DNA of 63,193 nucleotides, the filler included, from Sluysia triapertura (taxonomy: Eukaryota): NCBI GenBank assembly GCA_046118255.1. It is 5 parts of 5 records of this genome, joined end to end, with 100 filler letters (N's around TTAATTAATTAA, not from the genome) between each part and the next. Parts side by side here need not be neighbours in the genome. Positions count along the whole stretch, not along the records: positions 1 to 14,009 come from JBJNIA010010098.1; positions 14,110 to 25,378 come from JBJNIA010186591.1; positions 25,479 to 38,953 come from JBJNIA010038478.1; positions 39,054 to 50,863 come from JBJNIA010168925.1; positions 50,964 to 63,193 come from JBJNIA010127408.1. One strand, given 5' to 3'. The position numbers and the translations under genes are program-made. Shown here piece after piece: positions 8,072 through 55,310 of the stretch; the stretch's first letter is position 1; each line of letters opens with the position of its first letter. The notes under the pieces were generated by a model. It was not told the DNA's origin and did no database searches. It worked only from the letters and a program-made list of their open reading frames with translations.

Positions 8072-10658
8072 TGTTGTGAAAAAGTTTATGTTTATTAGAT
8101 AGATAATTATTAGGTGTAATTGAATCAAAATAAAGTTTATTGTAAAAATGTAAGAAATAATTTTATTAAATCTATCTAATAAATATTTATTAACAGATAT
8201 TACTGAAGTACATCTATTAAAAGTTTTTTGGTAACTATTAAAAATCTTTAAACCGCTTGATTTACTATTAAATGTTTAATTAAAGAAAAATTATCAAATG
8301 ATTAATGTTGAAACATCGTTGAACATATTGAGGGTATGACATTAAACAAATCTATATCAGAAAAAAATCAAATAAAAAAGAATAATAATAAATAGTATAC
8401 GTTTATGTTTGTTGTATAATAGAATAGTTTATAAAATGTTTTTTGTATCAATCAGTGTATCGAAATGAACTGAGATATTAATTATATAATCAGTCATGTA
8501 TGTTTATGTTTAGAAACGTTGTTGAACGAACATTATGATTTTTAAATTGTTCATAAGTTAATGACAAGATGACATATTTAGCATTTTCTTTAATGTCAAG
8601 AGGTTTTGTCATTGAGATAGGTAGTGTGTTGTCAGACTGGCCGTTAGTTATATGATTAGACATATAACGGTGATTATAATTATAACTAATAATAAAATGA
8701 TTTTTTGACTACAGTTTTAAGTCGTGTATTTCATTATTATTATTGGCATCATTATTAGTAGAGTCTTCATGATTTTTATTATCGGTAAGAACTACTCTGA
8801 GAATCGAATAATACGTTAGTAATCGATTGCGACGATGCTTAATGCACTTGGAAAAGTGAAAGCAAGTGGTAGCAGTAGTTAAATCATAATTAATATGTAA
8901 ATTGTTAACGAAATTAGGGTCTGTGTTTATGACATAATTTCCTCGACTACTTTGATTATTAAGTGAAGAGCATGATCTTGACAGATTCGTAATCATAATC
9001 TCTAATTAATGCTGCAGGACGTGACTGTGATAAGAAGTTCATTTTTAAACTTTCTTCACTTTCTTGAGCTAAATCTTTCTTGATCTAAATCTTTCTTGAG
9101 CTAAATCTTTAGCTGTAGTATTATATGAAAACTCTTCTGCCTCTAAATCTTCAATAGATTTCGTATCAAATGATTGACAGAAACTATTAATTTTATTATC
9201 ACTTCGTTCAGAAATAAACATCAGATTTTTAACTTGATTAGCTTGATGAAAAGAGTTTTTATTGATTTGTGAACAACTAAAATTATCATTAATAAGAAGT
9301 TTTATTGAAATAAAGATCTGGTATGATGAAACATTTGTAGCAGTTTCATTATATTTCATAGTCAGAAGTACTTTAAGGATAAGGATATTGTTGTATCATT
9401 GTAGAACTAAATCTTTTTTAGTAGTATTTTTTAAAATTGCCATTGATCGTAATTTTTCTGATTTTTGTTTACACAGTTTTGCTGGCCGCATTAATAAAAT
9501 TACTTTTTAAAATTAAAGTTAATTACTTTTTGAGATTAACTTCGTTGTGCCGTTCCATTTTGATTAAAGATAGACCAATTGCTGTCGACAAGGTTTAATC
9601 AGAATTTTATTGGTCACACACATCTTCTGCAAACACATAGACACCAACAAAATCTTGACCAGTATGGATCGATCAAAAACCGGCCAGGAACAATAAATGC
9701 ATAATTAATAATTTTGATTGATGTCGTCAGATTTCGACATTTTAATTAATTTTTAAATACATGAAATTTAGAAATAATGATAATGATAATAATAAGAATA
9801 AGAATAAAATAAAAATAATTTCTTGTTCACTAACTATTGCACTTATCAACTCTTAATTTTTCTACAAAAATGCTGATGACCTCTAAGTTTATTAATCATA
9901 TTACTTAACATAGTTCGTTTTTGTTTAGCATAATTAAAAACTTCAACAGCTTTTGCTTTTGATTTTGTGGTTCATTATTATTGATTCTTTATGTAATTTT
10001 ATCAATAGATGTAGACAATTTACAAATGCAATTATCAATATCAAGGTTATCATTTGTAATATACTTATAATTCATTGAAGTTATTCATCTAATGAAAGGA
10101 AAGCATCATCATGATAATCATCAATAATCACTGTTCATTTTTTCAAGTTTTTTCTGCAATTCAATTTCGAATTGTTTCTTTTCATATTCAATCCATCTCG
10201 TTATTCTTTTTCTATCTTACTCAATTTAGTTTTTACTATTTTAGTGTTTCCTTTTTTATTATCCTGTATTTGTGTAGAATTATTATGGTTATGATTATTG
10301 GTTATATTTAGATGTTCTATATTACTTGAGCTTGTTTATTAAACACTAATATTCGAGTGATTAGAGACATGGATAGTGAATAAATAATATGTTAACTATG
10401 ATCTTCATGTTCGTTGTTAGTGAAGGAAGAGAAAAACAGATAAAGATAAAAAATAAAAATTATGAAGAAATGTGGTATGATAATATAAACAAGATTAGAA
10501 GTATTAAAAGAAATTCCATTTAGTTCACTGTTATTTTTAATATTTTAAATAAAAATTTAATGATTTTTGATGTAATGTGTACACTGAGTGATGTAAAAAT
10601 GTGATTTTTAGTGTAGTATGTTGTATTAAGATTTTGTGTACAGATGTTGGCCACCACA
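8072..10658 (-). mobile_element. Family 1 cargo element, copy B
   Basis: The minus strand begins TGTGGTGGCCAAC (10658) and ends CACAACA (8072), with GTGATA flanking both sides (8065-8070, 10659-10664). The leader is similar to copy F; decayed ORFs lie at 9440-8709. Confidence 0.85.
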
Positions 10659-11403
10659 GTGATAAGCCGACCAATTTTAATAATTAATTTCCGCCTGTGT
10701 CCAATTTCATTATTTTTTGTAATTATCGAAGATAATGGGATTTGTGATAAACAATTTCCTTATCTTTTCAACATCATTAAATTAAAATTTACTATCATTA
10801 TTATATAGTTATTATATCAATAACGCAATTTATTAACTTAAATTAAGGATACAACTAATGCAATAATAAATTTATTTTTCATAGAAATTTTTCGTATAAT
10901 ATGTTGTGCGTCAGCCGTACGTTACAAGTCAAGTTCAATACGTATCTGAATTAGTATCTTTATAAGCATCAGTTTAATAAATACTTTACTTATACATGAA
11001 TGTCGGAGTATATTTAAGTTTAATTTTAAATTATAAAAAATAATTAAAATGACAAATTTTTACGTTATCTACATCGACATGCTTCGTAACACTTTTAAAT
11101 ATACAAATTAAACTCATCATTATACACTAAATCTAATATTATTTTATGAGCAAATATTTTTTATTAATATATCAAATTAAATTAAATTACCAAATTATTA
11201 ATTAAATTAATTTATAAATGCATTTTCATTTTTTGTTTTGATTAAAATATTTTATATACTTATTTTGTTATTATAATTCATAATCTTGTCATATAAGTCA
11301 TAATCTTCTGTCTCTCCTTATTCTTCGCTAATCCCAATCCGAGAATCTTTTGATACTAATTTGATAATAAGTTGATTGTATATAGTCATTTTGCTTACAG
11401 TGA

Positions 11404-11405
<2 letters not shown>

Positions 11406-11468
<63 letters not shown>
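11406..11468. repeat. (TTA)n microsatellite
   Basis: Visible trinucleotide run. Confidence 0.95.
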
Positions 11469-11470
<2 letters not shown>

Positions 11471-11595
11471 ATCACTATCATTATTACAGTTAAAATTTTG
11501 AAACCACATTGTTGTTATTTTTCTTTATTGTTAATAGTTAATTTGTAATTATTCGTTTTATAAACATTGTATTAATTAAACTGTCTTAAAATTGC

Positions 11596-12582
11596 TGTGG
11601 TTTTTCTAATACTTAACATACGGCAAAATATTTTTTGCAGGGTTCGGTTACAGTAAGCGTCTTACAACGATTCGTTGGCACTCCTGTAACAAATAAGTTA
11701 AAGATTACTTAAAAATAAAGTCTCTGCAAAATAAATTAGCTACTAAATAAACGTAATAATTTATTAATCAATTAACACGAAAAGCTGAATTATTCTATTC
11801 AATAAAAATTCTACAAAAATTATCAAATTTATAGAAATTAATAAAGAGATAAAAACAACTAGAAAATTTTTGAGATTAAAGCTCCTAGAGCATTTAATCT
11901 AATCTTTATCAAAAAGTTTGCGTGGATTTTATCCCTCAATATATCGGGGATTTATAAAATTTTTCTAAAACAATAAATAATTTAAGCGGATTTTAAGATT
12001 TTAACTTAAAAAAGTTAAAACCAAACCTTATAAAATATACAAATTACCAAAAGTTAAAAATCGATCTCTAATTCCACTGATTTCGGGATCAACTTGATTG
12101 CATAAAATCCTAACGAATCTAGTAACTAGATTGATGGATGTTGAATAACTGATTAATCGTAGATATCTGCTTAAATGGTTAAAAATGAAAAAGACTGCTT
12201 GATTCAATGACTACTAAATTGCAAATGGCTGCTAAATTAAACACTGGCTGCTAAAATTAAAAAATGGCAATTTTCATTGTATGATGCTAGTTTATATACC
12301 AGTCATCATCCAATGAAAATCGATGGAATGTTTTAAAACATTCTAGAACATTCTAGAAGCTTCTAATCTATTTTTAGAAGCTTACTTTCTATTTTCGAAA
12401 TTCCATTTTCTTTTTTGGAAAATAATTGCTTTCTGAGTAATTTTACAAATTAATAATTGATTTTAGAATATTTTATATGTTTTTAATTAATTTTTTGTTA
12501 AATCTAATTATCTTAAATTAATTTTAAGCTATTATTTTATCATTTTTAGATCTTTTTAGAGGGTTGTGATTGCAACCTAACA
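11596..12582 (-). mobile_element. Family 2 LTR-like element, apparently complete solo copy (~990 bp)
   Basis: The minus strand reads TGTTAGGTTG...AGAAAAACCACA; both ends align with 43929-44459 and ~46293-46644. HSE array at 12341-12363. No clear TSD. Confidence 0.75.
12341..12363. promoter_or_regulatory. Heat-shock element (5 units)
   Basis: TTC-TA-GAA-CA-TTC-TA-GAA-GC-TTC. Confidence 0.7.
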
Positions 12583-13694
12583 ATGATATGTTATTAATCT
12601 GAAAATAATACTCCTACATTTTCATTAGTTAATATCATAAACCTTTTATCAAATGATCCGATCAATGGACGCATTTAAACTTTCCTTTTCTATATCACGA
12701 AGTTTACATATGATCCATTGGCATCATTCTAATTTTTATATGATACCTATTTACTTTAACTTTGTCATATTTTTGTTTTTCGAAGTTAATATAAAAGCAT
12801 GTAAATTCTTTATTATTCAATATTACTCACATTAAAATATTATCATTATGATTATATTTTATATTATATTTTCCACTTCCGACATTGTCTTTTTTTGAAT
12901 GAACTTCAAATACAACCTAAAATACAATAAGGTTAGTATATCATAAAACTTTATTGTTATTGTATCTCTTCTCTTTTCATTTTATCATTTGTATTTTTAT
13001 TTGTTAAGGAATTTTATCAATTCATTAAATTTACAAATAAACGAAATATATATATATATATTGCCAAATTAGAAGACTTTTGGAATTTTTAATTACAAAG
13101 TATTGAGTTGACAAATTATATTGACCTTCTGTGGGAGTTCTCGACCTTGTATACGCCTTTCATTTACAAACACACCTGTCATAACTATGTTTATACACAA
13201 ATGCATGTCTGATTTTGTTATGTTGTATAACGTTCTTAAGTTAACACATCAATTTTTGTTGAAGATAAACTCGCGGGGGTTATAGAATTAATTCTCTAAT
13301 TAATAAATTAAATTTAGCGATTAACGTTTTATCCAGCATGCTCATGTCTTGATGTAGTTATGGGATATTATTGTAGTAAGTTTTATTCGAAATTCTATTT
13401 AAATATGTAAACGTCGCTATTTATTTATTGTTTAATTTTGAGTTTAAACGTAAAATGACGTATTTTAAGCATCATGATAAAGCCATTTTTAATAACTACA
13501 AAATTGATTTAAATATAAATCATCCGTATAATCTAAATTTCAAAGTTATAGTAAAATATTCATAAGTAAATATTCTTTAAGTGTGTTTTACGCCAGAATT
13601 TGCAAAATCGTTTTTATTATTAAATATATTTTAATTTTTTGGTGTTAAAAAATTTTTTAATTAAAAAAATTTACCTGTTTATTTTTATTTTAGT

Positions 13695-17114: not shown

Positions 17115-17230
17115 AAAATGGCGATTGTTCACTAAACTGGTTCTAGTCATCATCCAATAGAAATCGATGGAATATTAATTTTTTTAGAAGCGAATTTTCT
17201 TTTTTCGAAAAATAATTTTCTTTTCACACG
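17115..17230 (-). mobile_element. Family 2 internal fragment
   Basis: AAAATGGC...AGTCATCATCCAAT.GAAATCGATGGAAT...TTTTAGAAGC matches about 12260-12400. Confidence 0.65.
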
Positions 17231-17362: not shown

Positions 17363-17486
17363 GTCACAATGTGTAATATAGAAGACACTTGCCAGGCAAT
17401 CAGCAATCCCAATCCGTGCATTGATGGGAGAAAGGCTAACGTCAATTTGGCCGTACTGGGAGCCAAACCTAGAGTTTTTCCAGGAG
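17363..17486 (+). CDS. RBM24: RBM24/RBM38 (SUP-12-like) RRM exon
   Basis: After an AG acceptor it encodes [37 protein letters not shown], matching the RBM24/38 motif [22 protein letters not shown]. A 43-nt GT-AG intron (17487-17529) may follow, then a stop. Confidence 0.85.
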
Positions 17487-17629
17487 GTTATTCACATTAT
17501 ATTTCTGATTGTTGTATTTCCATTTTCAGCATTAAATTGATGTTTATAAATTGATGACGTGCGACGCATTGTACAAAAGATTCCTAAAGAGAAAAAAAAC
17601 TTATTATTTCATTAATTTTATCCTCAATT

Positions 17630-17856
17630 TCATAAATTGTGCCATTAATATAATAGTTTATAATAATGATATTAAATTTTAATTTAATGATATTGAAAAG
17701 ATAAGGGGGTTATCTTTAGGTAATTAGAAAGATAATTAAATTGGACACAGACGGAAATTACTGTCGAAATTCAATCAATAAAATTAGTGGGTTTATCACC
17801 GATTCAAAAGAATGGACAGTTTTAATTTCCGTCTTGTTCAATTTTCAATTTTCAGT
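17630..17856 (+). mobile_element. Small inverted-repeat element (family 3, MITE-like), uninterrupted copy
   Basis: AAATTGGACACAGACGGAAATTA (17738-17760) pairs with TAATTTCCGTCTTGTTCAATTT (17823-17844). A homologous copy is split into 8010-8070 and 10659-10840. Confidence 0.7.
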
Positions 17857-17973
17857 TTCTCAAATGATCGTAAAAGCAGAAAACTAGAAACAAAATAACA
17901 AGAGAAAAACAATGAAGAAACCGAAAACGTTTTAGCTTTAGGAACTCTGCTTCATTTCATCTGTGGATAAAGG

Positions 17974-20579
17974 TGTGGTGGCCAATCTATTACCTTAAAA
18001 AATTTTATTAAAAATATATCTTAAATATTTTACACATTTTCAAAAATTCATCAAAACATTCTTTTTACATAAGTTTTTGCCAACATAACACTCACTCCCA
18101 AAATCTGTAACTCACATTTCAAATTCACAACTAACACAAAAATAATTAAAATCATATTCGTTTCAACACCACAGAACTTTGTAAAATTCGTCACAACCGT
18201 TTTATATCTTATTCTTTTCAGATCAACCAAAATAAACTCTCATTTTTCAAAACATTTCAAATCTTCAACCTTATAACATTCAAATCTACAACCTCAACAT
18301 TTAATACCATCAAATTACACTAAGTGATTTATCAAAAATATTCTACTCGACATTTCATGACAATCAAACAACAACCACATTCGAAATTAACCACCAGATA
18401 TCTTCAAACTAATTCAAACATTCTAAATTCATGATCTGTTGTCATTTTGGCCCAAACATCACAGAAGATAATATTACTGAAATACATCAAGAAAATAAAT
18501 CATATTTTTAACATTGTATAATCATCTTTCGAACATACTAAAAGTTAGACTATAATTTACCTTTTTTTACATTCACTAAACCACACTCTTCTCAATGTAT
18601 CTTTAGGTCACAATCTCCTAATATTCAAACATTTGTTATTATTATTATCACCATTTTTAATTTTTATCATTTTTGTTTTCAATTATTTTATTTCAATTAA
18701 TTTGGTAACTACCACTACCAGTGGTGACTGCATTAATTCACAATGACAGTCAACGTCATCACTGATAGTGGTTTGCACCTCAATCATTTGGTTTCTCATT
18801 GTTCGTTTTATCTGTTTCTATTGGCCATCCAACGAGAACAAGCATTACTCTCGTCATCATTTCAACCCTTCTGGTTGTATGACCAATCAATAATCACTGT
18901 AGCTCAAAAATTTTTCATAACCACCAATTTTTATTTACTTAAATTTTTATGCACAGTAAACAATTTTGAAAATATTTTAACAATAATTAAGGAATTTAAC
19001 AAATTTCTACAAATATTACATTTGATCTTTCTGAAACTCGTTACGTATTTATTGAAAAAATCGGTATATATGCCTTTGTACAGTACGTAAAGTGAATGAT
19101 AAATTTAATTGTCAATATTATGTTATTAAAAAGATTCGAAATCCGTTTAAAAGTAAAATGACTTTAATTAGAAGTATATCCGAGATTAAAACTATTGATC
19201 ATTTCAACCATCCAAACATTATTAATATTATTGATATATTTCTTAAACAAACTTCTAATTTAAATAAAACATTTGATTTCTACGCAGTATTTAATGGAAT
19301 TGAAAATATTTGCATCGTATAATATCATCTAAACAAGAACTTTCTGATGATCATATTCGTTATTTTATGTATCAAATATTTTGTGGCCTTAATTACATTC
19401 GTCTGCAATGATGCACAAGGACACAATGATATCTGCTAATATTCTTGTAAGTAGTAGTTGCCTGATAAAGATAACTGATTTTGGAATGGCAAGGTCAGTT
19501 GAACCAATAAATCCAATACGGGTTTCTGATTCAACTTCTAATTATACACTTCAAGATGTTCTAAAGATGATAGATGAATTTCGACAATTAAAAGGTTATT
19601 ACACAATACTCCTATTTATAATATTGATGTACAAATTAAGGAACATATGTTTTTAGTACGCTTGAAAGTCTTCCAAGAAATTATTTACATGTTAACTGAT
19701 GTAATCAGAAAAAGGTACAACTTATGCAGATTCAAATTGATAAAGTCTTGCCTAGATGAACAATTAGAAAACGATGATGAGAATGGTGCTATTAGTGATG
19801 AGTTTAATGATAATTTTGAATATATAATGCTGGAATCGCAAATGGTATTATTAGTACGTTTATTTAATTTTATGTTTATTTTTAAACCGATATACAGCAA
19901 TAAAACATGTCACTTTGAAAAATGATGTTTCACCTCTTGCAGACTTGATTCATAAAGGAAATATGATTCCTAAAGGTTTTAAACTACGCATCCCAAATAT
20001 TAATGATTTGGTTACATAATCTATTCTCAGTGAAATGATCTTAGACGACGTTATTTGTATGATGGGACAAATTAAAGTAATGCGTTCTAATAATATATTT
20101 GAACATGAAGAAAAAATTTGTGAAATTAATTTAAATGGTTTAGTTTTGGTTGTTTGCGATATATTTGAATTACGCAATGAACTCTATATTACTTTCGATG
20201 ATCGGCACAATTTTTGGACATTAACAAGATATTTGAAATCGACCTATGAAGCTATTGAACGAAATTTTTTTCAAGAAATGACTAAGAGTTTTAATAAAAC
20301 TAGTTTGGAGACGATTGAAAAGGATGAAGATGAACCTAAAGTAATTACATTTTACACTGAAAATAATGATACCATAATTTTTTATTTCTGTTTAGATAGC
20401 GGAGCGGGAGAAATACGTGTCACATCACACATTATATATACGTATTAAATAAAATTTTTGCAATTTTTATTTATTAAATGTTTGTCGTAAGCTTTAAAAT
20501 AAATCTCAAATATGTTTGTCATTTCTTTATAATAATAAGTTAATTTGTAATGAAAATCGTTAAAATATAACTTAAAATA
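17974..20579 (+). mobile_element. Family 1 cargo element, copy C
   Basis: TGTGGTGGCCAA start, G-poor leader, inverted repeats at 18711-18772 and 18820-18887, kinase cargo, intron 20341-20395, end AACTTAAAATA. Collinear with copy E. Confidence 0.85.
19050..19494 (+). pseudogene. MAPK7: MAP kinase (ERK5/MAPK7-like) N-terminal fragment, frameshifted
   Basis: VIKKIRNPF...EIKTIDHFNHPNIINIIDI, LHRIISSKQELSDDHIRYFMYQIFCGLNYI and ANILVSSSCLIKITDFGMAR lie in three frames. DFGMAR is typical of ERK5. Kinase homology stops before the TxY loop. Confidence 0.8.
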
Positions 20580-20616
20580 TAATTAATTTATATACGAAAG
20601 ATAAATATGTAGATAC

Positions 20617-20778
20617 GTTTCGTGCATCATTTTTTTCTAAATACGTTGAGGATATTATTCCAGATGACCAAACAAAAGATTCGAAATATGTATTAGAGGA
20701 TAATAAATCATATATTTTGAATTGTAGAATCGTTTTAAAGATTTTTGATTCAAATTTTAAAATATTAGTATAGTGCAC
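20617..20778 (-). CDS. Possible exon of a METTL21-like lysine methyltransferase (Methyltransf_16)
   Basis: AG/GT-bounded 162-nt exon encoding FESFVWSSGIISSTYLEKN, resembling VWDAAIVLSTYLE. The next exon (VLELGAG motif) was not found. Confidence 0.4.
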
Positions 20779-21252
20779 CTAGAATATATTGTAATTCTGC
20801 CAAATCTGATAAATATCAAAGCTGACTATAAATTAACTTTACATAAATTTGGTGGGAATAGAATCTACTATAATTATAATTCATGGTACAATTTGGTTAT
20901 GTATAATTAATAATTCGTATAATCATAAGAAAGGAACATGAGGATTTGTTAAATTCTCAGAGTGGCCACAATTAAAGTTTATTGCCTTTAATTATTGTTC
21001 GTTTTGATTCTTTGAGAGATTGTAGGTTTCAGTAAATAGACAATATTTAAAAACATATTTTAAGTGTATTTTATGATTTAAATAATAAGTAAACTTTTTT
21101 TCAATTGACTAAAATTTCAAATTGGAAGTAATAAAATAGTTTCTTTTAAGAAACCATTTGTTTTCCGAAGAAAGTATTTTCCATCTTGACCAGAAATTGT
21201 GAATATTTCGTCAAAAGAAATCAATATTTTTACTGATTTCTGACAAATCATT

Positions 21253-23582
21253 TGTAGTGGCTAACCTTTTCATTTAAAATTCAAATCATTATTCAACATG
21301 ACACGTCACATCTACTAACATTTTACATCTTTACTTTTTCGGTTCCATTAAAACCTTGTTACATCTCAAAACATTGTAAATCCACAATATCGTAACATTA
21401 AAATTATACTTTCATTCAAAACCATTAAAGTACATTTCAAATTTTATCTAAAACATTTTAAGTTCACAATATTTCTACACTCAACCATTAATATCATTCA
21501 CAAACGTCAAATTCACATTCCAAAATCATTATAAAACATAATCAAAATGTATTTATTTGATATGCATTATTTCTTTTCAACATTCTTTCACAAATTCTTT
21601 TCACATTTCAATTTTCGTTATCGTATAAGCATTTTTTGTAAAAAGAATATAAGAATTAGAACAAGTATGCTTTTTCAAATCATTTAAAGAAAGAAAAGAA
21701 TTTTATTTAAGTTAATTTTATTTATCTTTCAAAGAAAAGAATTTTAATTCAAGAGATTAATGTTTAAAAGAATTTTTATGTTTTCCGGAAAGGTACAGAG
21801 AAAGATTTAAGAGTTTCTGCATTATGATTTTCTTTATTTTTATTATTATTATTATCATTTATTTATATTATTAGTTTTATTATTATTATATTATTATTAT
21901 TTATATTCGTCTAAACCAAATAATCATCAATTTTTGTTACCAACACTATCACTTGCGATTTTAACCTGTCATCAGGTGACAGTTTTTAATTTAATACCCT
22001 GAAGAAAATTTTCTAGCTGTCAACTGATGACAACTGCCAGGTTCAGTTGCATTATTATCAAAATTTTATAATTGTTGAAGTATGTAATGGTTATTGGTAA
22101 TTGGCTAACGAATAAAAACAAAGTAAGAGCGAATCTTGATGCAAAGAGTTAAAAATACTTCACAATACAATTACAATTAAAAAAGTTAAAAATTAAAACG
22201 TAGCAGATATTAAATATAGCGTAAAATCATTTTCGATAAAGAAAAGAGAAAACATCGAAATTTAATCTTATCAGAAGTTAAATTTGTATTTTACCAGATC
22301 TAGATTCATCGTAAAAATTAAAAAATTAGTTTATAGTGGAAATATTGTGAAAATTAGCATTCAATGATATCCCAATCACCCGATGTGGAATCAACTTAAA
22401 CCTAAATTAGTAAAACAGTTTTTTGTGGGTAAATTAGAATATGAAATTTATCTACGTGAACACATCATATTGTTACCAGGCAAATATATTTTCCTTAGTG
22501 TTAGAAGTCACATGGAAAGTTATTTACAAAAATTTAAATAATTGGTATAGAGAAGTGATGCAACATTATTCAGATATACCTTATATTCGCATAGTCAATA
22601 AAGTTGATATATCAAAAAATAAGTTTACTCTTTTAAATAATCCTGTTCCTGAGCATGCTTCCTGTCATCGAAAACAAAATTACACTAACTTAATTTCGTT
22701 CAAAAATGAAAGTTTACAAATGTTCTTCAAAAATGGTTATCTTGATGTCAATAACTTATCCAAATCATGAAGGTATTAATTTTAAATTAAAATTAAATGA
22801 TGAAATGTATATTCAAATCATACCAAATATACAAAGAATCGTCTCGTAATTATCATGCTTTTGATAAAGTTGATATAATAGAATTCATCTTCAATTATGT
22901 TTTCAAAGATCTTCGTTTTAGTCTATCATCAGCTATATTTCAACAAAACTTATATGTTCAGTACTTACCATCACGAAAGAACATGATTATAGATAACGAA
23001 GTCAATTACCAACATAATATGACTACTGATTCTAAGTTGAAATGTTCAGAAACAGAAATGTTTTGCACAATGTCCATCGCAATTAGATGAATTTGGAATA
23101 TGTATCAAGTTTGGTACTTTTTGTCATTATGCCCATAACGTTTTCGAGATAAGTTATGACTCTGTGCTTAATGTGATTGATGATATACATTTACGATGCC
23201 TTAATGGTCTAATTTCATCCTTGCAAAAGTATGGAATCAATTCTAATCTACAATCCAATAAATTCAAAACTCAAAATTCGGATAACAAGGTAATTGAAAA
23301 CAATGTTAATGAACTTAGACTTGAAAGAATCTGATAGTCTGAAATATAAATTCCAGTTGTGTAGTATAATCAATTTAACAAACTATAAACATTTTTTTAG
23401 AATTTTTGATTAAAGCCTTTTATAATAAATTTATGCATATATTGTTTGCAAATTTGCAAAAGAAAATCAAATTTGAATTTTTCAAAGCCAAATTAAATAT
23501 ATCTATAGTTAGATTAATAATCATTAATTATTTCAATTACTTATACTTTAATAACGAAAATTTTAAAACAGAACTTAAAACA
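21253..23582 (+). mobile_element. Family 1 cargo element, copy D
   Basis: TGTAGTGGCTAACC start, G-poor leader, ATT tract, inverted repeat 21967-21982/22017-22032. The end AACAGAACTTAAAACA aligns with the end of copy C. Confidence 0.75.
22441..22613 (+). pseudogene. RABL2: Small GTPase fragment, RABL2-like
   Basis: KFIYVNTSYCYQANIFSLVLEVTWKVIYKNLNNWYREVMQHYSDIPYIRIVNKVD aligns with RABL2 RFQSMHASYYHKAHACIMVFDVQRKVTYRNLSTWYTELREFRPEIPCIVVANKID. G4 NKxD present; G1-G3 absent. Ran is the alternative call. Confidence 0.65.

Positions 23583-31794: not shown

Positions 31795-31857
<63 letters not shown>
31795..31857. repeat. (AAT)n microsatellite
   Basis: Visible run. Confidence 0.95.
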
Positions 31858-31859
<2 letters not shown>

Positions 31860-38041: not shown

Positions 38042-38405
38042 GGTAAAGGTGTACAATAAGGGCGCCAATTTAATTAATTAAAATAATAATTAAATAAATT
38101 AATTGAGTAAATTAATTAAATAAATATTAATTGTTTTTAAATTTAAATATATGTTTGGAACACCTAAAATAATGATTCCTTCATATTTGGATGAGTTTAT
38201 GTGGATAAGAAGATATAATAATAACAATGTTAAATTTCAGAATGGAATAATTTAAATTAAACTATATTTGATATATATTTAAAATACATTATATTTTACA
38301 TTTTCTATAATTAAAATATTTCATTGCATATATTGTTTTAATACATTGTTTATTTAATTATTATATTAGTTAATTAAATTGGCCTCCTTATTGTACATCT
38401 TTACC
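38042..38405 (+). mobile_element. Merlin (IS1016-like) deletion derivative
   Basis: TIRs of about 55 bp beginning GGTAAAG(G/A)TGTACAATAAGG. The internal remnant GTPKIMIPSYLDEFMWIRRY matches the Merlin/IS1595 transposase C-terminal YLDEFxWR motif. Confidence 0.8.
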
Positions 38406-41637: not shown

Positions 41638-43249
41638 CTTAATAAAAATTAACTTGGATCAAAGAATGCCAAGAATTTAAATTAAGTTAATATATTTCGG
41701 AATCACATAAAATCAAAATTTAGAAATACATGAGTGAATTATATTTATAACTGTAATATTTGGTTGCCATATTTGGAATAATGTCGCATCATCTTGTAAC
41801 GTTTGGTGTAAAATATTATTAGTTTTATAGTTTTACTTTTATTGTAATTATTAATTATTATGTTATTTACAAATTACGAATACTATTTAGATGAAAATAT
41901 AAAAGTTAAAAATTTTATTACTAGCTTTTAAAAAGTTGAAAAAGTACATTTGCAATTAAAGGACATTCAAGATTAATCATATCTGATATGTAATTATTCA
42001 AACGTAAAACTACTATATAAACGCATAAGTTTTACAATAGTAATAAGTGTTATCAATTTTATTGAATTTTACGAAATTTAAATTCTCAAATTTGTTCAGC
42101 AGTTGGATAGTTATTTTTTAATTTTTTGAACAATCTTGATATTTAAAAAACTTCCTTAAATTTAGCACAGCAATTGGATAACTAATCTACAATTTTTTTA
42201 ATGACAAGCATTGGTTTTTTCGTTAGTTTTTAAATAAGTCATTTTTAGCAATTTTACAAACTAATAAAATCTTTAATACACTATTTTTGTAATATACCTT
42301 TAACCCAAGTTATTATAAATTATTTTAATGATAATCCTGATAAAATTATATCTTGAATTAAAGTTAAATTTGTTTTTCAATCCATAATATACAATGGATA
42401 CTTTTTTATTAAAGCTTTTTATAAAAAATTTTCTTATAAACTTACTAAAGTAATTCATTGTTAACGTGTTTTACATTATAATAGACTTTATTTTAGTTTT
42501 AAAAAGAGAGTTTTTATTAAAACATATATTTTTGTAACATATAGACCGTAAAATATAATAAATTGATTGATCATTTTAATGCGGATCAAATGTAAATTTC
42601 ATTTAATTTATATATTTACAATTTCATAAAAATCCACGATTTTTTTTATTGAAAAACTTAACATTTCCATATTTTCTTAATTTCAAAAAATATTTGGACA
42701 CTACATCTTACCACTATAATATTATGGATTTTATATTAACATTAACAATGGTATATATATTCGCTGACAATGGATGATTCAGATGCAGCAATTAGTTTAC
42801 TCAGACCAATCGAGTTCTTTTCTCTTAAAATCTTCATTGAATGCAAGCAAGTCACGGTAAAATTACACGATAGTATAGCGTACAAAAGAAAATAAAGTTA
42901 AAATACTATATTGCTTAGTGTTGATGTTACTACGCGAAAATTCTTGAATTTCTCCTCACCAGCTTTACGTCTAATTGAACTAAGGAAAAGAATTAAAAAA
43001 TTAAAAAATCAATAAGGAGCTTCGGCTACGTGCCTAACAAATTTGCAAAGAATTAATTTTGGCACTACGATGTATTCATTTAGTCATAATCACATGTAAT
43101 TTCATTAAAGCCAATGTTGAAATTTATTATTTTGAGTATTAATAAAATTCGTAATGAAAAAATGTACTCAAAGCATCAATTGAAAAACTAATAAATAATA
43201 ATAACATAATAAATTTTTTAGTAAGGGCATTTGATAATGATCAAATTAG

Positions 43250-43600: not shown

Positions 43601-44459
43601 TTTATTTCCCAATTTTGGTTAATGTGCGTCTTAAGCGTCGATATTTTTCAAAGAATAGAGTAAATTTAATTGCGAGCCTTATGTATGACAAAGCTTTAAT
43701 TAAATATTTATTTTATAAAGTGAAATTTTGTAGTTACAATGTATCGTATAAAGTATTTTTTTAATACTATAAGTTAAACCCATTAAACGCAGCAATAAAA
43801 GGAATAGAAAACATTAGTAATTAAGCTTTTTTGGAAGCATGTGCTGCCAAAAATATTGGATAAGCACTACACTTACATTATACATAGTAAATATTGTTAG
43901 TAATAAATATTCTAAATATAGTAAATATTGTTAGGTTGTCATCACAACCTATTCAAATTACCGAATCGATGGACATAAAACATTTAAAATCTTAAACTAT
44001 AAAAAAAGAAAATTCTTACTAAAAATAGAAAAGAAGTTTCTAGAATGTCTAGAACATTCTAGAATTCTACTCACTATGATTAGCTTTTATAAATAGCTGC
44101 AGTAAACCATAAAGACGCAATACAAGTTAATAAAAATTTCGGTCACCACTTTTGTTATTATCGGTTTTTGGTACAGATTTTGATCACCACTTCGAATTAG
44201 AAAGAATTTATATTAGTAGGGATTGAGCAGAATATCCGAATGCTAATTGTCCATCGATTTAGTAAGTTTTATTGATTTAAGGTATTTCAATCTTTATGGT
44301 TGAAATAATAAAATTTACGCAAATTCATTTAATAATTTTTATTACTCAGATTTAACGAGGTTAGAATTTAAATTAAGATCTATTAGTTAAAAGATTAATA
44401 TCCTAGTGATTTTAATCCTAAATTATTAATTTTTTTTACTGCTTTTGCTTTATTATATT

Positions 44460-44959
44460 TGTGGTGGCCAACTTCTTCACAAAAATTTTATTGTATCATT
44501 ATACACTAAAATCATACATTTACAACATTTAAAATACTCAACACATCACACTAAAAATCACATTTTTATAACACTTCAACTATTTATTCCATCAAAAATC
44601 GTTAAAATTGTAATTTAAATTCAAATATAATAGTAATGTAAATGGAATTTCTTTTAACATATCCAACTTCCTTAATTTCATTTTATACTTCTTTTATCTT
44701 AGAACAATGTACGTTTCTTCGTACAAATATTTTATTGCGTATTTCAATAAGACTTGAGCATGTTTAAGAATTCTAAAGAATATTTTTTTAAAAGAAATTT
44801 TTTTTAGAAAACAATAAAGAAAAAATGTTTAGAAAGAAACTTATGTCATTTTTAATTTATTTTATTATTATTTATTTATTGTTATTATTATTACTTTTGT
44901 TATTTCATTTTTAATTTTATTATTATTTACATTATTATTTACATTATTATTTACATTAA

Positions 44960-45007
<48 letters not shown>

Positions 45008-46292
45008 GGTCATCATTAATTATTATCATTATCATTATCGTCATTAAAATTTGTTTTCAATTTGTTTTTTTGAGTAATTGCTGTCATCATATGACACTTT
45101 TAATTATAAACTTATGAATTGAATTTAGCACAGCAACAAAATGGTTGCTTCGATTGGCTTTAAATCAGTGAGCACAATTTACTTTAATCATTGGTCAACA
45201 ATTGAACACGTTGTTAAATAATGCATACATAACTACAAGTTGATCACAAATAAAAATTATTTAGAGTTAAACGTAAAGAACAATGTCGATGACGATTTCA
45301 GATGCAAATATCTCCAAATTTCCAAATTCTTATGTTTTTAATAATACAAGTTTATCTAACACTATTGTTAACTCTAATGTCTTACGTCAAGAAAATTTCA
45401 AACATTTACGTTATTTAAATGATTTTCAAACTCAACAATGTCTATTTGTCGATCATAAATGTCCATCACAAAAACCATTCACGTATTTTAATTGGCATTT
45501 TCCAAATCAATGTCGTACACCATTGGAAAAATCTGATGGGATATTCAATTACAATCCTGATGTTTAATGTATTTCATATGATGAAAACATAAATTTGCCC
45601 AAATGGAGATGATTGTCAATATGTTCATCGAAACGCTGAAGATACGGAACTTCGCTATTACAAAACCGGGCAATGCATGTATGAGACGCCAGACTCTGGT
45701 CAATGTGTTAAGAATGGTCAACATTGTGCATTTTGACATTGATTCGATGATATAAGACAACCCTTGTAAGATATCAAAAAAGCTAATGATGCTGCTGAAC
45801 ATATTGCTAATTTACTAGCTATGTTAGAAAAAGAACGAGCTCTAAGTGAAGACATCGTGCAATATTTTAACGATTCGATCCAAATAGCGAGTTCTTCGAT
45901 CAGTGGCCATCCAATTCAAAGTGATTCAAAATCTCTTGTCATCGGCAATTCTACGCGTAACGTTGATGAAAAGATTTATTCAAGGGTATACCATTTATTT
46001 TTACATTTACTATTAAATTATAATGATTATATTTTTATTCTTTTATTAAGACAACGAATCAGCGTATGGACAGCAACTTTTCAAGCATAAATGAACATTT
46101 ATTATTATCTAAATTATGTGTTACAAAACAATTTTTATTAAATCAATGAATTTTGTCTTTAATATATGTGTTAGGTGTTACTTTAATTATCTTGTCTATA
46201 AAAATATATCAAAAAGACTTAATAAAGTAATGATTTTATTTGAAATAAATAAATTTAATTTGAATAATTTAACAATAACTAAATCTAAAACA
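44460..46292 (+). mobile_element. Family 1 cargo element, copy F
   Basis: TGTGGTGGCCAAC start; leader similar to copy B; (TTA)n at 44960-45006; unkempt cargo; intron 45986-46050; end ATCTAAAACA. Confidence 0.8.
45283..45855 (+). pseudogene. UNK: unkempt (UNK/UNKL) CCCH zinc-finger N-terminal fragment
   Basis: HLRYLNDFQTQQCLFVDHKCPSQKPFTYFNWHFPNQ...DGIFNYNPDV*C, then a frameshift to ICPNGDDCQYVHRNAEDTELRYYKTGQCMYETPDSGQCVKNGQHCAF*H. Matches unkempt ZnF1-3; stops at 45565 and 45734. Confidence 0.9.
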
Positions 46293-48202
46293 TTTTATAG
46301 ACCTCCAAAATATTCTTTAATCATTTGTCTAGTATTGTTTGATAATAAATCTTTTATTCATTGTACAGATATCTTTCTTTTGGTAACGAATAATCATATA
46401 AGATTTAGAATTTTTTAGTTTAAACTAATTCAAAGATATTATGAATCAGATCGATTGAAATTGTAAAATAATTGATAAGTGTAATGCCCAAGATGGTAAA
46501 TTTAATTAATGAACTTTCCGTCAATTGTAAGTTTAGCCTAAATATCGTTACAGATACGCCCTCTTTACGATATAAGACGTTTACTGTAATCAGACCCTGT
46601 TCAATTTTTATTCTGTTGTAGATTAGGGTTTAAGAAAAACCACATTAATATAAATATACTGCTAGGCTGTGATGTAATTGATTTCAAATTTGTAATAATA
46701 ACAATTTGATTTTTATGACAATTTTTAATAATTAATATTTGATGAATTATTATTATTCGATATTAATATTATTATTAGATAATTATATAAAATATATAAT
46801 AATTAAAAAAAATTTCCAATAATTATCAAATATCACATAAAATAATAAATAACAAAAAAATAAATAAAATTAGTTGATTTTAAATACCTAAAATAAATTT
46901 TTGTTTTATTAAATTAAAGTATCAATAAACAAAATAGAGGGTTAGATTTAGCTACTTAAACCAAATTTTTTTAGAATAAAATCAGAATTAAAAGATTATT
47001 AGGACACATAGCAAGAAAATTTTGGTTTGCAGAAAAAAAATCTACGATTAATCAAAATTAATTCAATGAGTCAAAAGTAATTTTTTTGTTAATAAGTTTA
47101 AATAGAATAGGTTTAATTAATATATACTTAAAATCTCATTTTAATTTCCTAGTCCGCAAAAAGGCTAGGTTAATTTGTATTTTAAAATTTGAATTTTATC
47201 TCCTAAACCTTAAGCTTAATGAAGTAAAATCACAATTATTATTATAATTTTTTTATTGTGCTTGTATAAAATTTTTACTACACATTTATAATAAAAATTC
47301 GTAGTACTTATTTATTATTCGTTAAAATCATTTACAACTTAATCAGACCGTAAAAGGATGATTCAACCTTTAAAATACTTGAATATTTTGCAGAGCGTAA
47401 GAAGGCTGTCTTAACATATTAATAAAGTTTTGTTCGAGCTATCCAAGCTAAAGCAGATAATTCCACCACATATATTATCTCCAATTGAATAAGTCTAATT
47501 AGCCCGTCGTCAATTAGTGACATAAATCGTATCTAATTAGCCGGACTCTTCTCCAGTTCTTATTTATTTTGCTAAGTAGGTATCTCTTAAGAAAGAACCT
47601 TCGCAACACTTATATCAAGAAATTATTTTACGTTAATGTGAAAACTTCTTCAATTGGCAATACATAATAAAAAGTATATCAATATTATTTTTTACATATG
47701 CAATATACACTTATTTTAATTTAAATTTTTCTTATATGATTTATCCAGAAAATAAGCCTTGGTTTATAACAGATTAGAGTAATTAATCATGCAGAGAATT
47801 GAATATGTAAGTCTACAATATTCCCATAAATGACATATATTATTTTAATATATTAATATTACTTTGAATTATGTGGCAGTTATTAATATTATAAATAATT
47901 AAATATAATTAATCTCTAATGCTGTCACATGACAACACTTAACAGAAATATTATTGCAATTGTTTTAAAAAGTTTTCTTAAGTGATCTTGATACTACAAA
48001 ATAAAAGTGGAACTAAATTAAATGAACTTAATTATGTAATATATTATAATTATTTGTATAATACATACTGTGAATTTATAATTTGATCTTGATTTAAAGA
48101 TTTATATATTTTAATAATCACGTATTTTGAATTTTTATAATTTTAATAAATGTATTAGGTGTGCTTTTTAATTATCACGAAATTTTAATTTTTAAAAGTT
48201 AA

Positions 48203-48844: not shown

Positions 48845-49222
48845 TCAAACTTCTTCAGCACCAGGAACCTTCAATAAAATTTCAAGATCTTCCAATTCAT
48901 TTGCTTCATATAAATCATCAAAATTCTTTTTTACAATAAATAAAGATAAAAATCTTACTGCAACATATTCTTCATCTACAAAAATATAGGGAGGACAACC
49001 AGGTTTAATGTCATGCTTTTTTAATTCTTCGAATACTTTGTTTTTAATTTCGGCATTATTAACAAAAGCTAAATCTATTTCTGTAAATTTTATTTGCTTT
49101 GCGATAAGAATCATTCGAACAAGCTCTTGTCTTTTCTTGACCTGAATAAATATTTATGTGTTATTTAAAAATCATACCATTTGACTGCATGACAGAGAAG
49201 AAATAAAAACTTCAACACTCAT
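48845..49222 (-). CDS. SH3BGRL: SH3BGR-like glutaredoxin-fold protein; exons 49222-49178, 49141-48959, 48925-48845
   Basis: MSVEVFISSLSCSQM|VKKRQELVRMILIAKQIKFTEIDL...PPYIFVDEEYVA|NFDDLYEANE...LLKV, with 36-nt and 33-nt GT-AG introns. Confidence 0.85.
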
Positions 49223-49789: not shown

Positions 49790-50695
49790 CTGCTCATTAC
49801 GTCCGTGGAGAATACCATTGACATGGATGACTGAGCCAAGTTTCATAATGATTCTCATATCATTATCTCCTCCAAAGGTTATCTCAAATGTTCCCTTGCA
49901 GATTGCACTATGAAGGGACTAACCATTAAAAACCGTTCCGACTGCAATGAACAATGCAGGCATTTTCTTAGCAAAAATAAATTCACTAACCCTTTCAGTG
50001 AATTGAAAGTGAAATGAACCTGTGATGCCATTAAGAATTTGGAAGAATTATCCTTGACCCACATCGAAGATACGATTGTTACTAATAATGCATTCGTGGA
50101 TCGGGTAAAAAATCAACTAAGCTGTCCCATATACAGTTTCCTCCCCTACTACACTCCGTTGTAACTCTTAAGGAATTACCAATACCGTTGTAGTCTTGGA
50201 CGACATCAGCTTAAAAAACATAATTTCAAGGGAAATCATATTAACGTTAAGGGTTCCTGCTCCCTCATTTTTTGTTAGTTTAATCTGTCTCTCTGGTTTT
50301 CTCCTAACTCATACTACACCAAACAACTTATATCTGGCTCTGATAAATAAGGACTTAGACTCCACATACCAGTCAGATTGACTATCCTTAATGCGATCAT
50401 GGCTTTCTTTAATGCTTTTATCTCAGACCCTAACTCTGATGTCATTGACTCCACTTTGCTATACTCATGATGAGCAAGCGTTTCATAAGAACTCCATTCC
50501 GAAATGCTGCAACTGGTAACACTTTTATTGGATACTGAATAATGAGAACCATCGAATCCTCCTTATATTCAACAGGGAGAACAATTTCTATTGTGTTGTT
50601 GATCCTTTGGATAATTCTCCGCGTCACATCTACCTGTTATGTGACTTCTTCAAAAATGTCATGGTAGCATACACTGCTCTGCCAGTGTACTGTAA
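49790..50695 (+). mobile_element. Truncated second copy of the NeSL-type element (ZnF and Ulp1-like region)
   Basis: Collinear with about 56030-56975, e.g. GATTGCACTATGAAGGGACTAACCATTAAAAACCGTTCCGA vs GACTGCAATATGAAAGGTCTTACTATTAAGAACCGTTCTGA. Confidence 0.85.
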
Positions 50696-50963
50696 AGGAT
50701 AATTTGACAATTTTTATGTTAAAGGATAATTTGATAATTTTTATGTTTTTTGTGTTTTTTAAAATTTTATTGTATATTTTTATTAATATTGTTAGATTTT
50801 TCCTTATTCCTAACAAATTATCTGTAGGGTCAGTTCGCTTAGTATATACGCTTTATACCAAACNNNNNNNNNNNNNNNNNNNNNNNNNNNNNNNNNNNNN
50901 NNNNNNNTTAATTAATTAANNNNNNNNNNNNNNNNNNNNNNNNNNNNNNNNNNNNNNNNNNNN

Positions 50964-51034
50964 GCTGATAGCTCAGTGGTAGAGCATTCGGACTGCGCAG
51001 ACGATGGTCCCGGGTTCGATCCCCGGTCAGTCCA
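50964..51034 (+). tRNA. tRNA-Ala-like gene/pseudogene (first 2 nt in the gap, anticodon arm irregular)
   Basis: A box TAGCTCAGTGG, D stem GCTC/GAGC, T arm CCGGG-TTCGATC-CCCGG, acceptor GCTGA/TCAGT with G3:U70 and A73, then TTTT. Confidence 0.7.
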
Positions 51035-52891
51035 TTTTACCAAGTCTAACAAATTTAACCGATTAATAATAGCCAAAACTTCAAAACAAAGAATTTTAAA
51101 TATTTCCAAAATGGCGAATGCAAAGTGGTGATAGTTTATATATGCTGGGTTTTGCTTTTATCTAAAACTTAAAAACTACCTTAGAGCAAAATAAATTAAT
51201 AGAGTCCACGTGCAGTAAACGACTTATCAGTGGCGTACCTGTAGTAACATTAAAGTATTCTTAAAGAATAACGAATAAAGATATCATGAGTAATTTATAT
51301 GCTAAGACACAATAATAGCGGTGACCAACGTGTTCGTTTATATTTAGGTTTTTTGTTGATAATAGTGCAGAAGACTTACGTGGAAATTTTTTGTTGTTTA
51401 TTTTATCAAAGAAAGTAATTAATTATCCTAAAATATATGTATATATTAGTAGAATAATGTTACAACTAACTTTGTATTAGAGTCTTACGTTATTTACCTT
51501 AAAAATGGTCAGATATCGTTAAATACAAATTCGAGCAACTCAATCGTTAATCAAAAATAACAAATATTATATAACATATATTATATAAAACTTAAAAAGG
51601 CTAAATATACAAATATAATTTATATCAAAATAATAATATAAACAATAATAATAAGAATTGATTTTGAATCAGTTTAACCTAGCCCAAGGACTAGTTGGTG
51701 ATTTTTTGTAATTGGCCTTAAGGACCAACTAAAATAAAATGATTTTAGAATTTAATGAGATTTTGTTATTGATCTTAAGGACTAACAAAAATAGGGTAGT
51801 TTAAGCAAATTGTTTAACTCTTGCGAGCGTACAAATTATTTAAATTAAACTTATTACTTAATTTAAAATTTGATAAGAAATTGTTGTCCACTTTGGTAAT
51901 ATTCAAATATCTCGACAAATTAATTAATTAGAACATTATAGAAGCTACTATTTTTAAAAGCTAATTTTTTTTTATAGAAATTTTATTTTCCCTGTTGGAA
52001 AAATAATAATAATGATGCAAAATTAAATTAAGAATTCATTACGCAAAGTAAAGCACTGGGGGCACCAAAATTATGTTGCGTCTTTGAAAATTATTAGCTA
52101 TGATAAATCAATATTATTTTAATTAGCTTAAAAAGAATCTCAATTATTTAAGTACTCACTATATCAAGTATAAATTTTCAGTAATTGTTTTACTTTGATA
52201 ATAATTATTATTCAGCCCAAAGTTAAGTTTTTGAAAATCAAATCAATAGCAATAATATAATAATTTAGTGATTAACAAAAATTAAATACAATTTATTATA
52301 ATTTTAAATATCCACTAAACAATACTAAAAATGACTAAAGTAACAAGATTAACAATAAAGTTTATAATAGTACTAAGGACATAACAATCTATCTAAAGAA
52401 ACCAAAGGTGACGCAACACTATGAAAAATACTAATTATAATTCACGATTATTCCTTAATAATAATCAAATATAAATTTCCCAAAAGCAACACAAAAACGA
52501 AAACTATTTTACTAAAATCCCCAAAAATAATATTATTTATAATTATAAAATATATTCAAAAATTACTTAAAGCATGGACCTTATCATTTGCATTATTAAT
52601 TGTAAAATTTTTTGGTATTATATTTATATTTTATCATCATCCAGTCATTCCAAATATTTGATTAAACATTCTCTCACACAAATCACTGCAACATTCTTTG
52701 AGAATAAATCCGACAATACTAACTTTAACAGTTACATGGTACAAACTGTCAAACTTTACTAGATACAAAACACAAAAAATTGATTTATGATTGATTATTT
52801 CCTTTACTCTAGTCAATCTACTTTTATTTCAATTAATTCTCACATTAAAATACCAATCATTATTATTGTTAACATACATAAAAATGATGAA

Positions 52892-55310
52892 TGTAGTGGA
52901 CAACCTTTATAATCGTTAAACTTTTTAAAAAAAATTAAATCTTTAACACTTAGATATTCACACACGTACATCCTACACAATTACAAAACAGTTCATTTGC
53001 CTAAACTAAGCCATATTCACAACCTCATAATATACAAACCACAGTTACATCTTATACCATCAACTTACACCAATAAACCTATCAAAAACATGTAACTCGA
53101 CATCCATAATAACCAAATAATATCCGCAAATGAAATTATCTACTTTACACCTTTGAATCAATTACAACATCTTAAATACACTATTCGTCTATGCATAATC
53201 ACCAAAAACACAATACAACACCATCAAAAACATCAAATAAACAAATCACATAAAACACTGTACAATAATTTTTTAAATATACCAAGAGTTGTATTGTAGT
53301 TACCTTTTTAGATTTTACTATATTACAATCTTCTCAATAAGTCTTTTATCCACGATCATGCAATACTTAAATGTTGTTTTCAATTATGTTTTAATCAACT
53401 CTTTCTAACATTCTCTATTTCATCTCACGACTTAAATCAATTATTATATCTTCAAATGTTAACTACACTTATCAACTCATTCAAAACAATTCTTACTCAG
53501 AAACTTTAATTCCAAACACATTTTAAATTTATTCCAATGTGTTAGAAATCTTTAAGATCGTGTACAGTTTTAAAGAATTCAATTTTATGCAACGAAATAA
53601 CAATAATTCGCACATTGTGCATCCTGTTATTGTTGCTATTTCATTCAATGTTATCAATTTTTACTTCATTTTTATCTTTTATATTTTGAGAAGAAAGACT
53701 AGAAGAAAGTAAGCTCTTGTATAATAATTAATAAAAGAAATTTATGCAATTTTTTCCTTTTTCGTTGTTAATAATAACAATATTGTTATTGTTATTATTA
53801 TTATCAAATTATTAAATTAATTATCAATTAAATTTTTATAAAGTACCACAACTAGTTACTACCATCACCAGTGTTGACATTGCTCATCACAATCTTCATT
53901 ATCGTGTCAACACTGATGATGGCCAACCATCAGTAATCATTGTTTTTGTTGATCAATTTGTTCTTTGTACCTGTCATCCAATCAGAACTAATTTTATTAA
54001 ACTGTATACTAAGGAACCCTGATTGGATGACCAGCCACATTCTTAAAACTAAAAAGAAAATTGCTAAAAATAAAACTACATTAATGTAATAAATTTTTAT
54101 CGATTACAAAACAATATTTTATTTACGATAAAAAAGAGAAGTCCAGCCATAAAGGAGTTATCGATAAATCTCAATGCATCTATTTATACCAAAAATTTTC
54201 GTTTTACCAAAATCAATAGACAATTCTAAAGCTCTACTGCAGGCACTTCCAAGTAATTTAAAGCATCGAAATTATGACGATTCATTTTTTGTAAAAGTCA
54301 ATTCTCATATGATTCTTGTATGTAAAAATAAATATCCATCAATTCAAGATCTAGAAAAAACTCGCCTGATATTCCTATCATGACAGTATGCAATGTCAAA
54401 ATATTATCATTCGATTCAGTGAAACCAGATGTCTATGGTTGTTTTATTTCAAATAAGAGACTCTAAAGATTCAAATGCCTCTGCAATTTTGTTTATGTGT
54501 AAGTACGCAGATTTATCTCATGAAATAATAACCGGTTATTATTATAAATAAACAGATTATTGTTCAGCTGATGAAATTAAAGTTGTTAGACGTAATCATA
54601 TTTGGATTATCGTATTTGCACGAAACTTTTGGCAGTTAGTAAACAGTCATTTAGCTACTCGATATTTTACTTTATGTGAAGACATCAAAGAACCAATCGT
54701 CCATCAGAACGATAATTCCCATTTCATTATCAAACCGAGACAGACAGTTTTCAGATATTACAAAAAAAATCCGAAATGCCAACCATGGAATGTTTTTAAC
54801 TCCGGAACAGTTTGTTTTGTTACCATTAAAAAATCAACAATACGTAGTAGTTACAGTAAAAGCTGTCACCGTTTCATGTTAAGAATGGTTACCGAAAGAA
54901 CTATAGATTATTATCGACCTATTGAAACAACATCCCTGCTATTCTATTATAGATTGCGAGAAATACCAGAAAAAACAATCAAGTGTCTTTTGGGAGAACA
55001 AAAATTAAGTGTCTGTTCTAGTATAACAAGAAATCCTTCGTTGGTGAAAAACCTTAACATTAAATTCAAGGCTAGGTTCAATGCTATGTGTAGATACTTG
55101 ACAAGAAAAATTAAAATTTTATTTGTAATAACAATTAATAAATTTACATCCTGTAATTTTTCGTCTTTTGATTATCTTAAAATTTCTTTAAAGTATGGCA
55201 TAATATTTGAGATAACTTTAAAAGATATATTTTTAATCTACTTCAATTGTTATAAAGCTTGTTTTTATGAAACTAATAATTGTTCAATAACTAATAAATA
55301 TCATTATCAA
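52892..55310 (+). mobile_element. Family 1 cargo element, copy G (3' end abuts the NeSL-type element)
   Basis: TGTAGTGGACAACC start; G-poor leader similar to C and E; inverted repeats at 53861-53922 and 53973-54031; decayed ORFs at 54170-55100. Confidence 0.75.

Follow-up and report, generated by a model that had tools for sequence, protein, structure and literature searches.

Units with target duplications and decayed host gene pieces in the Sluysia triapertura genome may be long solo LTRs

The stretch of Sluysia triapertura DNA analysed here (the window; 63,193 nt, five joined parts from assembly GCA_046118255.1, to which all positions refer) contains units, labelled A to G, that together account for 15,876 of its 63,193 bases (25%). 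The units have defined boundaries, target duplications and many relatives, and they carry a mosaic cargo that has decayed. We hold with moderate confidence that they are long solo long terminal repeats (LTRs) of the Gypsy or BEL type, with pieces of host mRNA captured within the LTR. A preliminary description, made from the sequence alone, had proposed a gene-capturing cassette family with one fixed frame. Our data support real inserted units, but the ends given for C, D and F and the single frame had to be corrected. The far end and the target duplications of the units are new from this window, which has a GC content of about 25%, includes 767 N, and is poor in genes and rich in repeats.

Six copies, B to G, have the start TGTRGTGG in common. 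The longer form TGT(G/A)GTGG(C/A)(C/T)AA occurs six times, exactly where the preliminary description had placed the starts of B to G, and had no match in 30 dinucleotide shuffles (the pattern being derived from these very copies). Copy B is located on the minus strand (8070–10658), while C (17974–20596), D (21253–23599), E (30916–34027), F (44460–46309) and G (52892–55310) are on the plus strand. The copies with two ends, B to F, are 1850–3112 nt long; no far end was found for G, which adjoins a long interspersed element (LINE). Contigs from one sequencing run, which may be the source sample, were compared with positions 17400–23800, and 7,263 of them matched at a likeness of at least 80%. Exactly before position 17974, 56 contigs depart into unlike flanks (flank agreement 0.43), so that the start of C is a sharp boundary at many loci. 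The depth of exact single-locus contigs was 17.5–19. Summed contig depth was 5,754–12,960 on the C leader and 9,927 at the start of D, compared to 90–3,078 on cargo, 179–270 at 3′ ends and 19–64 in the flanks; summed depth does not equal copy number, and all we take from it is that the start has many relatives and the far end far fewer. In three contigs, sequence of the C leader is joined to that of the D leader.

Copy B sits inside another repeat, of which an uninterrupted copy is present at 17531–17941 on the plus strand. The flanks of B align to this copy and overlap at 17794–17799, the empty site, which demonstrates that the whole 2.6-kb block was inserted. The repeat split by B (7850–8069 and 10659–10940) is short and very abundant, with a summed depth above 35,000 in one bin, and has its own 22-nt internal inverted repeat, with B between the two arms.

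For C, D and F the flanks point to ends 17 nt beyond those first proposed, at 20596, 23599 and 46309. The five bases upstream of the start recur at this offset of +17 with 4/5 matches in C, 4/5 in D and 5/5 in F. For C this was the sole 4-of-5 match among 81 offsets, and an offset common to the three copies was obtained in 0.58% of 20,000 random trials. The end of D was confirmed independently by the contigs: their depth drops from 165 to 50 to 0 across 23573–23623, three of them exit the window sequence after 23599, and two pieces stop at 23599 and 23600. Other copies have this end as well, and the bases there agree with those of the target upstream. A target duplication of 4–5 bp is present in all five two-ended copies. 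Over positions −8 to −1 the duplication matches in 3, 1, 2, 5, 5, 5, 5 and 2 of the five copies; the three mismatches in the left ends of C, D and E all lie on the base adjoining TG, and none lies elsewhere. The duplication would thus be either 5 bp long and partly decayed, or 4 bp long with a variable base next to it. An AACA-type end had been proposed for B to F. This applies to B and E, which end in CACAACA, but C, D and F end in ACG, AAA and AAA, respectively.

The leaders are G-poor as previously described, with 3–8% G over nt 13–500, but the G-poor stretch is about 200 to 1000 nt long and not 500 to 900 nt. The ATT-rich tract is present in each copy. Two leader groups can be distinguished, C/D/E/G and B/F, which have only about 12 terminal bases in common. 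Within the first group, the G leader is 67% identical to that of C over 341 nt; of the eight cross-group pairs none scored better than its own shuffles (z scores −1.5 to 2.4). When the last 200 nt were compared, 3 of the 15 pairs aligned, C–E clearly (z 13.7), and A–F and B–F weakly (z 4.8 and 4.0). With at least two leader groups and diverging 3′ parts, the idea of one fixed frame had to be given up.

Paired inverted repeats are present as described: C, E and G have two in common, and D has its own one. The shared ones lie at 18711–18886 in C, 32096–32270 in E and 53861–54034 in G, all on the plus strand. The first has 18-nt arms with a loop of 26–27 nt (26 nt in C), the second 13-nt arms with a loop of 39–40 nt (40 nt in C). 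The inverted repeat of D (21965–22036, plus strand, z −3.4) has palindromic TGTCA-N5-TGACA arms. Folding of segments chosen around the repeats gave z scores of −2.6 to −5.4. Compared to C and E, five columns are altered on both sides in G with pairing kept, as expected for compensatory changes. The 12 cells with non-Watson-Crick pairs, which share ancestry, comprise seven that form G-U pairs on the minus strand, one on the plus strand and four on neither. Six of seven hairpins fold better antisense to the cargo, although the C-rich plus strand biases this result. Rfam contained no match for the hairpins, and only a tRNA was found in the window. The second inverted repeat holds a word that we take to be CCAAT-like, and the inverted repeats may possibly act as promoter sites at the DNA level. 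The pattern of the second inverted repeat was found at no viral loci; two metagenome loci that carry it were rejected as chance matches, being GC-rich with prokaryote-like open reading frames (ORFs) and no further likeness. A dispersed repeat family (6152–6319, 12287–12485, 17146–17222 and 44002–44058; 66–88% alike) has two copies with the word CATCCAAT, which is also found in the second inverted repeat of the units.

A short 3′ intron had been suggested for C, E and F. Candidates are indeed located on the plus strand at 20341–20395 in C (55 nt, GT-AG), 33767–33821 in E (55 nt) and 45986–46050 in F (65 nt), and further ones in B and D; in these five copies AT-rich GT-AG stretches of 49–65 nt lie 236–331 nt from the end. 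They are candidates by sequence only, and similar GT-AG patterns occur elsewhere too, including A and G. Reading the C/E intron as coding sequence gave a ratio of nonsynonymous to synonymous substitution (dN/dS) of 0.68 over 34 codons, which is uninformative.

Our analysis agrees with the earlier view that the units are high-copy, inserted, have integrase-type ends and carry exchangeable, sense-oriented cargo of host origin. All cargo features described in the following are on the plus strand. Copy C contains a frameshifted fragment of a mitogen-activated protein (MAP) kinase at 19080–19563, with no room for an intron, which matches Pfam Pkinase positions 14–169 in three frames and MAP kinases in the PDB. 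The best PDB match was p38-delta for one kinase fragment, and plant MAP kinases followed by ERK5 for another. The kinase of C and E, reported as ERK5-like, is thus a MAP kinase, but the PDB matches do not single out ERK5. Alongside the kinase piece, C has an orphan stretch and a SAM_KIDINS220-like domain (20026–20241; PF23307, expectation value (E) 8e-11), whose ORF had no PDB match. Kinase and orphan stretch are present in copy E as in C, while a tandem repeat and a decayed Unkempt-type finger (33566–33637; PF25427 E 3e-4, below the cut-off) replace the SAM-like domain. Copy D carries a fragment of a Ran-like small GTPase (22447–22629; PF00071 E 1.5e-6), called RABL2-like in the preliminary description but with Ran as its sole PDB match (E 8e-7), and an Unkempt-type CCCH finger (23065–23142; PF25427 E 4.9e-5, below the cut-off) in a module related to that of E (tblastn E 0.002). 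For copy F the predicted unkempt cargo was verified: the N-terminal finger cluster (45400–45733) has no room for an intron and is colinear with 5ELH, matching residues 3–59 and 70–120 with an E of 1.7e-14 each. The SAM-like domain in C and the Unkempt-type fingers in D and E had been overlooked. Over about 155 residues for the kinase piece and 118 for the Unkempt piece, the cargo follows the protein colinearly and leaves no room for introns; we infer that it was probably captured from mRNA. A block of 460 nt in copy E, which includes a perfect run of AAT (31520–31980), is missing from C, and at 33190–33490 E has a tandem-repeat ORF without stops in which N, D and Y are frequent.

Domain and homology searches with the cargo of A, B and G yielded nothing convincing. 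The orphan ORF of G, which begins at 54552, was matched by none of 160 candidates of near length, reached a best Atlas score of 0.77 (low recognition) and had a single PDB match at E 0.06. For the kinase-plus-orphan ORF of E, the one match among 1.84 billion representatives was an unrelated repetitive plant kinase and was rejected. Ten proteins from the window had no entry in the protein collection searched.

Homology between copies C and E spans the whole unit. Four blocks are 71–78% identical and different sequence lies between them, which shows an exchange inside a kept unit. The dN/dS values for C/E cargo were 0.77 (83 codons) and 0.92 (53 codons), small samples to which no significance test was applied, and the value for the D/E finger module was 0.50, near saturation. 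The C/E cargo thus appears to drift near neutrally. Working chimeric genes, as envisaged in the preliminary description, are not supported: the cargo is decayed and frameshifted. The copies examined are decayed, and no functional new gene is apparent in them.

A solo LTR would look like these units, each of which is single and unrepeated, has ends of the LTR type and is flanked by a short duplication. The general LTR integrase motif is TGTTRNR...YNYAACA, and the form of the CsRN1 clade is TGTGGYG...MSYYAMA (PMC3601003). Four of our starts match TGTGGYG at 7/7 positions and two at 6/7, and all six match TGTTRNR at 6/7. At the 3′ end B and E have 7/7 matches to YNYAACA, D and F have 6/7 to the CsRN1 form, and C has 3–4/7. 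LTRs of the CsRn1 type have 4-bp duplications and end in AAA or ATA (PMC2582038), and D and F likewise end in AAA. Terminal inverted repeats do not exceed 7–8 nt (13–18 of 40 positions pair, only the first 7–8 in a run), and in no case are the two ends of a unit direct repeats of each other. According to the preliminary description, gag, pol and transposase were not seen, and 60 stop-free ORF pieces taken from A to G likewise contained no domain of gag, pol, integrase or transposase. Solo LTRs of Metaviridae (Gypsy) elements, especially those with CsRn1-type ends, are alike in the TGTGG start, the ACA or AAA end of B, D, E and F, and the short duplication (PMC3601003, PMC2582038), as well as in having no terminal inverted repeat, internal stem-loops and one end that is better conserved. 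They differ from our units, which are 1.9–3.1 kb long, have a duplication of maybe 5 instead of 4 bp, and contain host pieces and a candidate intron. Kilobase length is known for LTRs of Ogre (1.9–6.5 kb) and is implied for the planarian Burro elements, which exceed 30 kb and have many host-like domains (PMC6431247).

To generate such units, reverse transcriptase would have changed its template, both to host mRNA packaged along with the element and to sister elements, and this template switching would have swapped the kinase, GTPase, SAM and Unkempt pieces within the LTR. Intronless pieces from several parents are a mark of template switching (PMC5131818). Integrase would then have inserted the full element, and recombination between its LTRs would have left a single LTR flanked by the target duplications. 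Its promoter or RNA-hairpin region probably corresponds to the inverted-repeat block. In LTRs, R/U5 shows higher conservation than U3, and stem-loops are retained where R is long (PMC3601003). The LTR and the cargo may have opposite orientations; this would account for the survival of a sense intron and for relatives being most numerous at the G-poor end. The strand preference of the hairpins and the better-kept end, which is GT-rich on the minus strand, favour this layout, while the cargo direction and the CsRN1 asymmetry disfavour it.

Several observations weigh against long solo LTRs. The end of C fits the LTR motifs poorly (3–4/7), the duplication of B begins 1–2 nt past its ACA, and for B and E the duplication register was the one that gave the best match. 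Neither a primer-binding site nor a clear purine tract was seen beside any copy in the window, and no copy has a second LTR paired with it or gag or pol alongside. That 5/5 two-ended copies have a sense intron candidate is difficult to reconcile with repeated reverse transcription, except for an antisense LTR; template switching normally leaves the cargo sense to the element RNA, so that the two clues on orientation conflict. Furthermore, LTR-mediated retrocopies lie between two LTRs and not inside one (PMC5131818), and the CsRn1-like LTRs listed have lengths of 146–383 bp (PMC2582038) versus 1850–3112 nt here.

Close to the idea of the preliminary description, the units could instead be complete non-autonomous units that moved as DNA, with a Gypsy-integrase-like transposase acting in trans on the short TG ends. 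A promoter, an intron and a poly(A) region would all belong to the unit itself, and gap repair from complementary DNA (cDNA) or sister copies would replace the cargo. We regard this as possible, although it is not the reading we prefer. It agrees with target duplications that enclose the whole unit, with a candidate intron retained in 5/5 two-ended copies, and with six starts and five ends, none of which adjoins retroelement internal sequence. The low agreement (0.43) of the 56 contigs departing at the start also fits, and the ends of Ginger elements have a TGTNR pattern too (PMC2836005). It is however at odds with inverted repeats of at most 7–8 nt, since those of known Ginger and Pack-TIR elements measure at least 40 nt (PMC2836005, PMC8277862), with the strong difference between the two ends in number of relatives, and with the lack of a transposase in the ORF pieces of A to G. 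A bolder and rather doubtful version is that of short-ended, promoter-bearing gene cassettes, which lack terminal inverted repeats and do not derive from an LTR element. A borrowed integrase would move them as single DNA units with their own intron, and their coding slot, with a recurring module of the RNA-binding Unkempt finger, would be refreshed from host mRNAs. If true, this would in effect be a eukaryotic gene-cassette system filling a quarter of the window.

It is unlikely that only the leader of about 1 kb with its hairpins is mobile, as a promoter arm, and that the cargo began as a neighbouring processed pseudogene, or as sequence from a duplicated gene family, and was only later copied together with the leader. 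The summed depth, high on the C leader and the D start and low on cargo and 3′ ends, would be expected from this, as would 3′ ends that align in just 3 of 15 pairs. However, B entered another repeat as a single 2.6-kb block, the far end of D recurs in other copies and agrees with the target bases upstream, and the homology of C and E extends from end to end. We consider it very improbable that the mosaics were made by rolling-circle capture of the Helitron type or by a foldback element. Helitrons produce no target duplication, start with TC and end with CTRR, and the units differ in this. The duplicated target of B largely refutes this origin, and a TG start, target duplications in the other copies, hairpins in the middle of the element instead of near its 3′ end, and the lack of long arms also argue against it, even if hairpins are present and Helitrons typically carry gene fragments in series and in sense orientation (PMC6431247).

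Among other known systems, Ginger1 and Ginger2 resemble the units in the TGTNR start and the 4–5-bp duplication (PMC2836005), and animal Pack-TIR elements in multicopy host cargo and retained introns (PMC8277862). Our units differ from these in having no terminal inverted repeats of 40–270 nt, no CCGG target, no 9–10-bp duplication and no transposase. Burro (GYPSM1) and Ogre resemble them in kilobase LTRs and very high copy number, and Burro gains host-like domains (PMC6431247). Burro was compared by description only; its extra domains are described in the internal polyprotein, and kinase, GTPase and Unkempt are not listed among them. Retrocopies mediated by LTRs, including maize Bs1, are alike in non-autonomous re-copying and in partial pieces from several parents, which are intronless as the cargo here would be (PMC5131818). 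In the retrocopies of the type described by Tan et al., however, cargo replaces internal sequence between two LTRs, while we find a single unit with unrepeated ends. Ginger, Pack-TIR/Pack-MULE and between-LTR retrocopies thus each fail a defining test. As judged from sequence features, the system would work like LTR-mediated gene capture, and we assign it to no named clade. A literature search returned no description of this family, although Repbase, Dfam and the original Burro report were outside the search and may hold one; look-alikes of the units in other genomes were not listed.

In the literature examined, gene capture by LTR elements places the cargo between two LTRs and yields few copies. 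If the cargo is inside the LTR, each insertion and each solo LTR would leave a self-contained set of promoter, chimeric ORF, intron and end. Such a system would be a device for domain shuffling at genome scale, and in annotation it would give rise to orphan genes and expanded gene families that are not real.

Copy A (1–936, plus strand) extends beyond the window with its 5′ part and has an uncertain 3′ end. An exact 11-mer of the second inverted repeat at 30–40, common to E and G, and a weak likeness of its last 200 nt to F hint that it is a member; a search of the window with a C/E/G profile missed it. When the window was searched for leaders, hairpin blocks and ends, both with profiles and with single copies as queries, no additional copy emerged. 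None of the four N gaps (near 14050, 25420, 39000 and 50910) is inside copies A to G; they are assembly joins, as indicated by a 12-nt spacer with stops in all frames between N runs.

A decayed LINE (55310–59700), which adjoins copy G, has Ulp1 protease and reverse transcriptase domains and is presumably of the NeSL type. LINE-related sequence was also found at 49800–50700, with a 67%-alike fragment at 50200–50690. Three host genes look intact: a single-exon gene of the TMEM17/216 type (4397–4828), an SH3BGR gene with a probable 33-nt in-frame intron (48845–49153), and a divergent, intronless ABCF gene (60921–62546), whose best relative is only 32% identical. An open D/E/K-rich repeat ORF on the minus strand (41092–41658) had no Pfam match. 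Beside an assembly gap, at 50961–51035, lies a tRNA-like gene called Arg-GCG, an unusual anticodon, which may be a tRNA-derived repeat. Finally, a sequence resembling a miniature inverted-repeat transposable element is located at 38042–38405, with terminal inverted repeats of 57 nt that are 91% alike.

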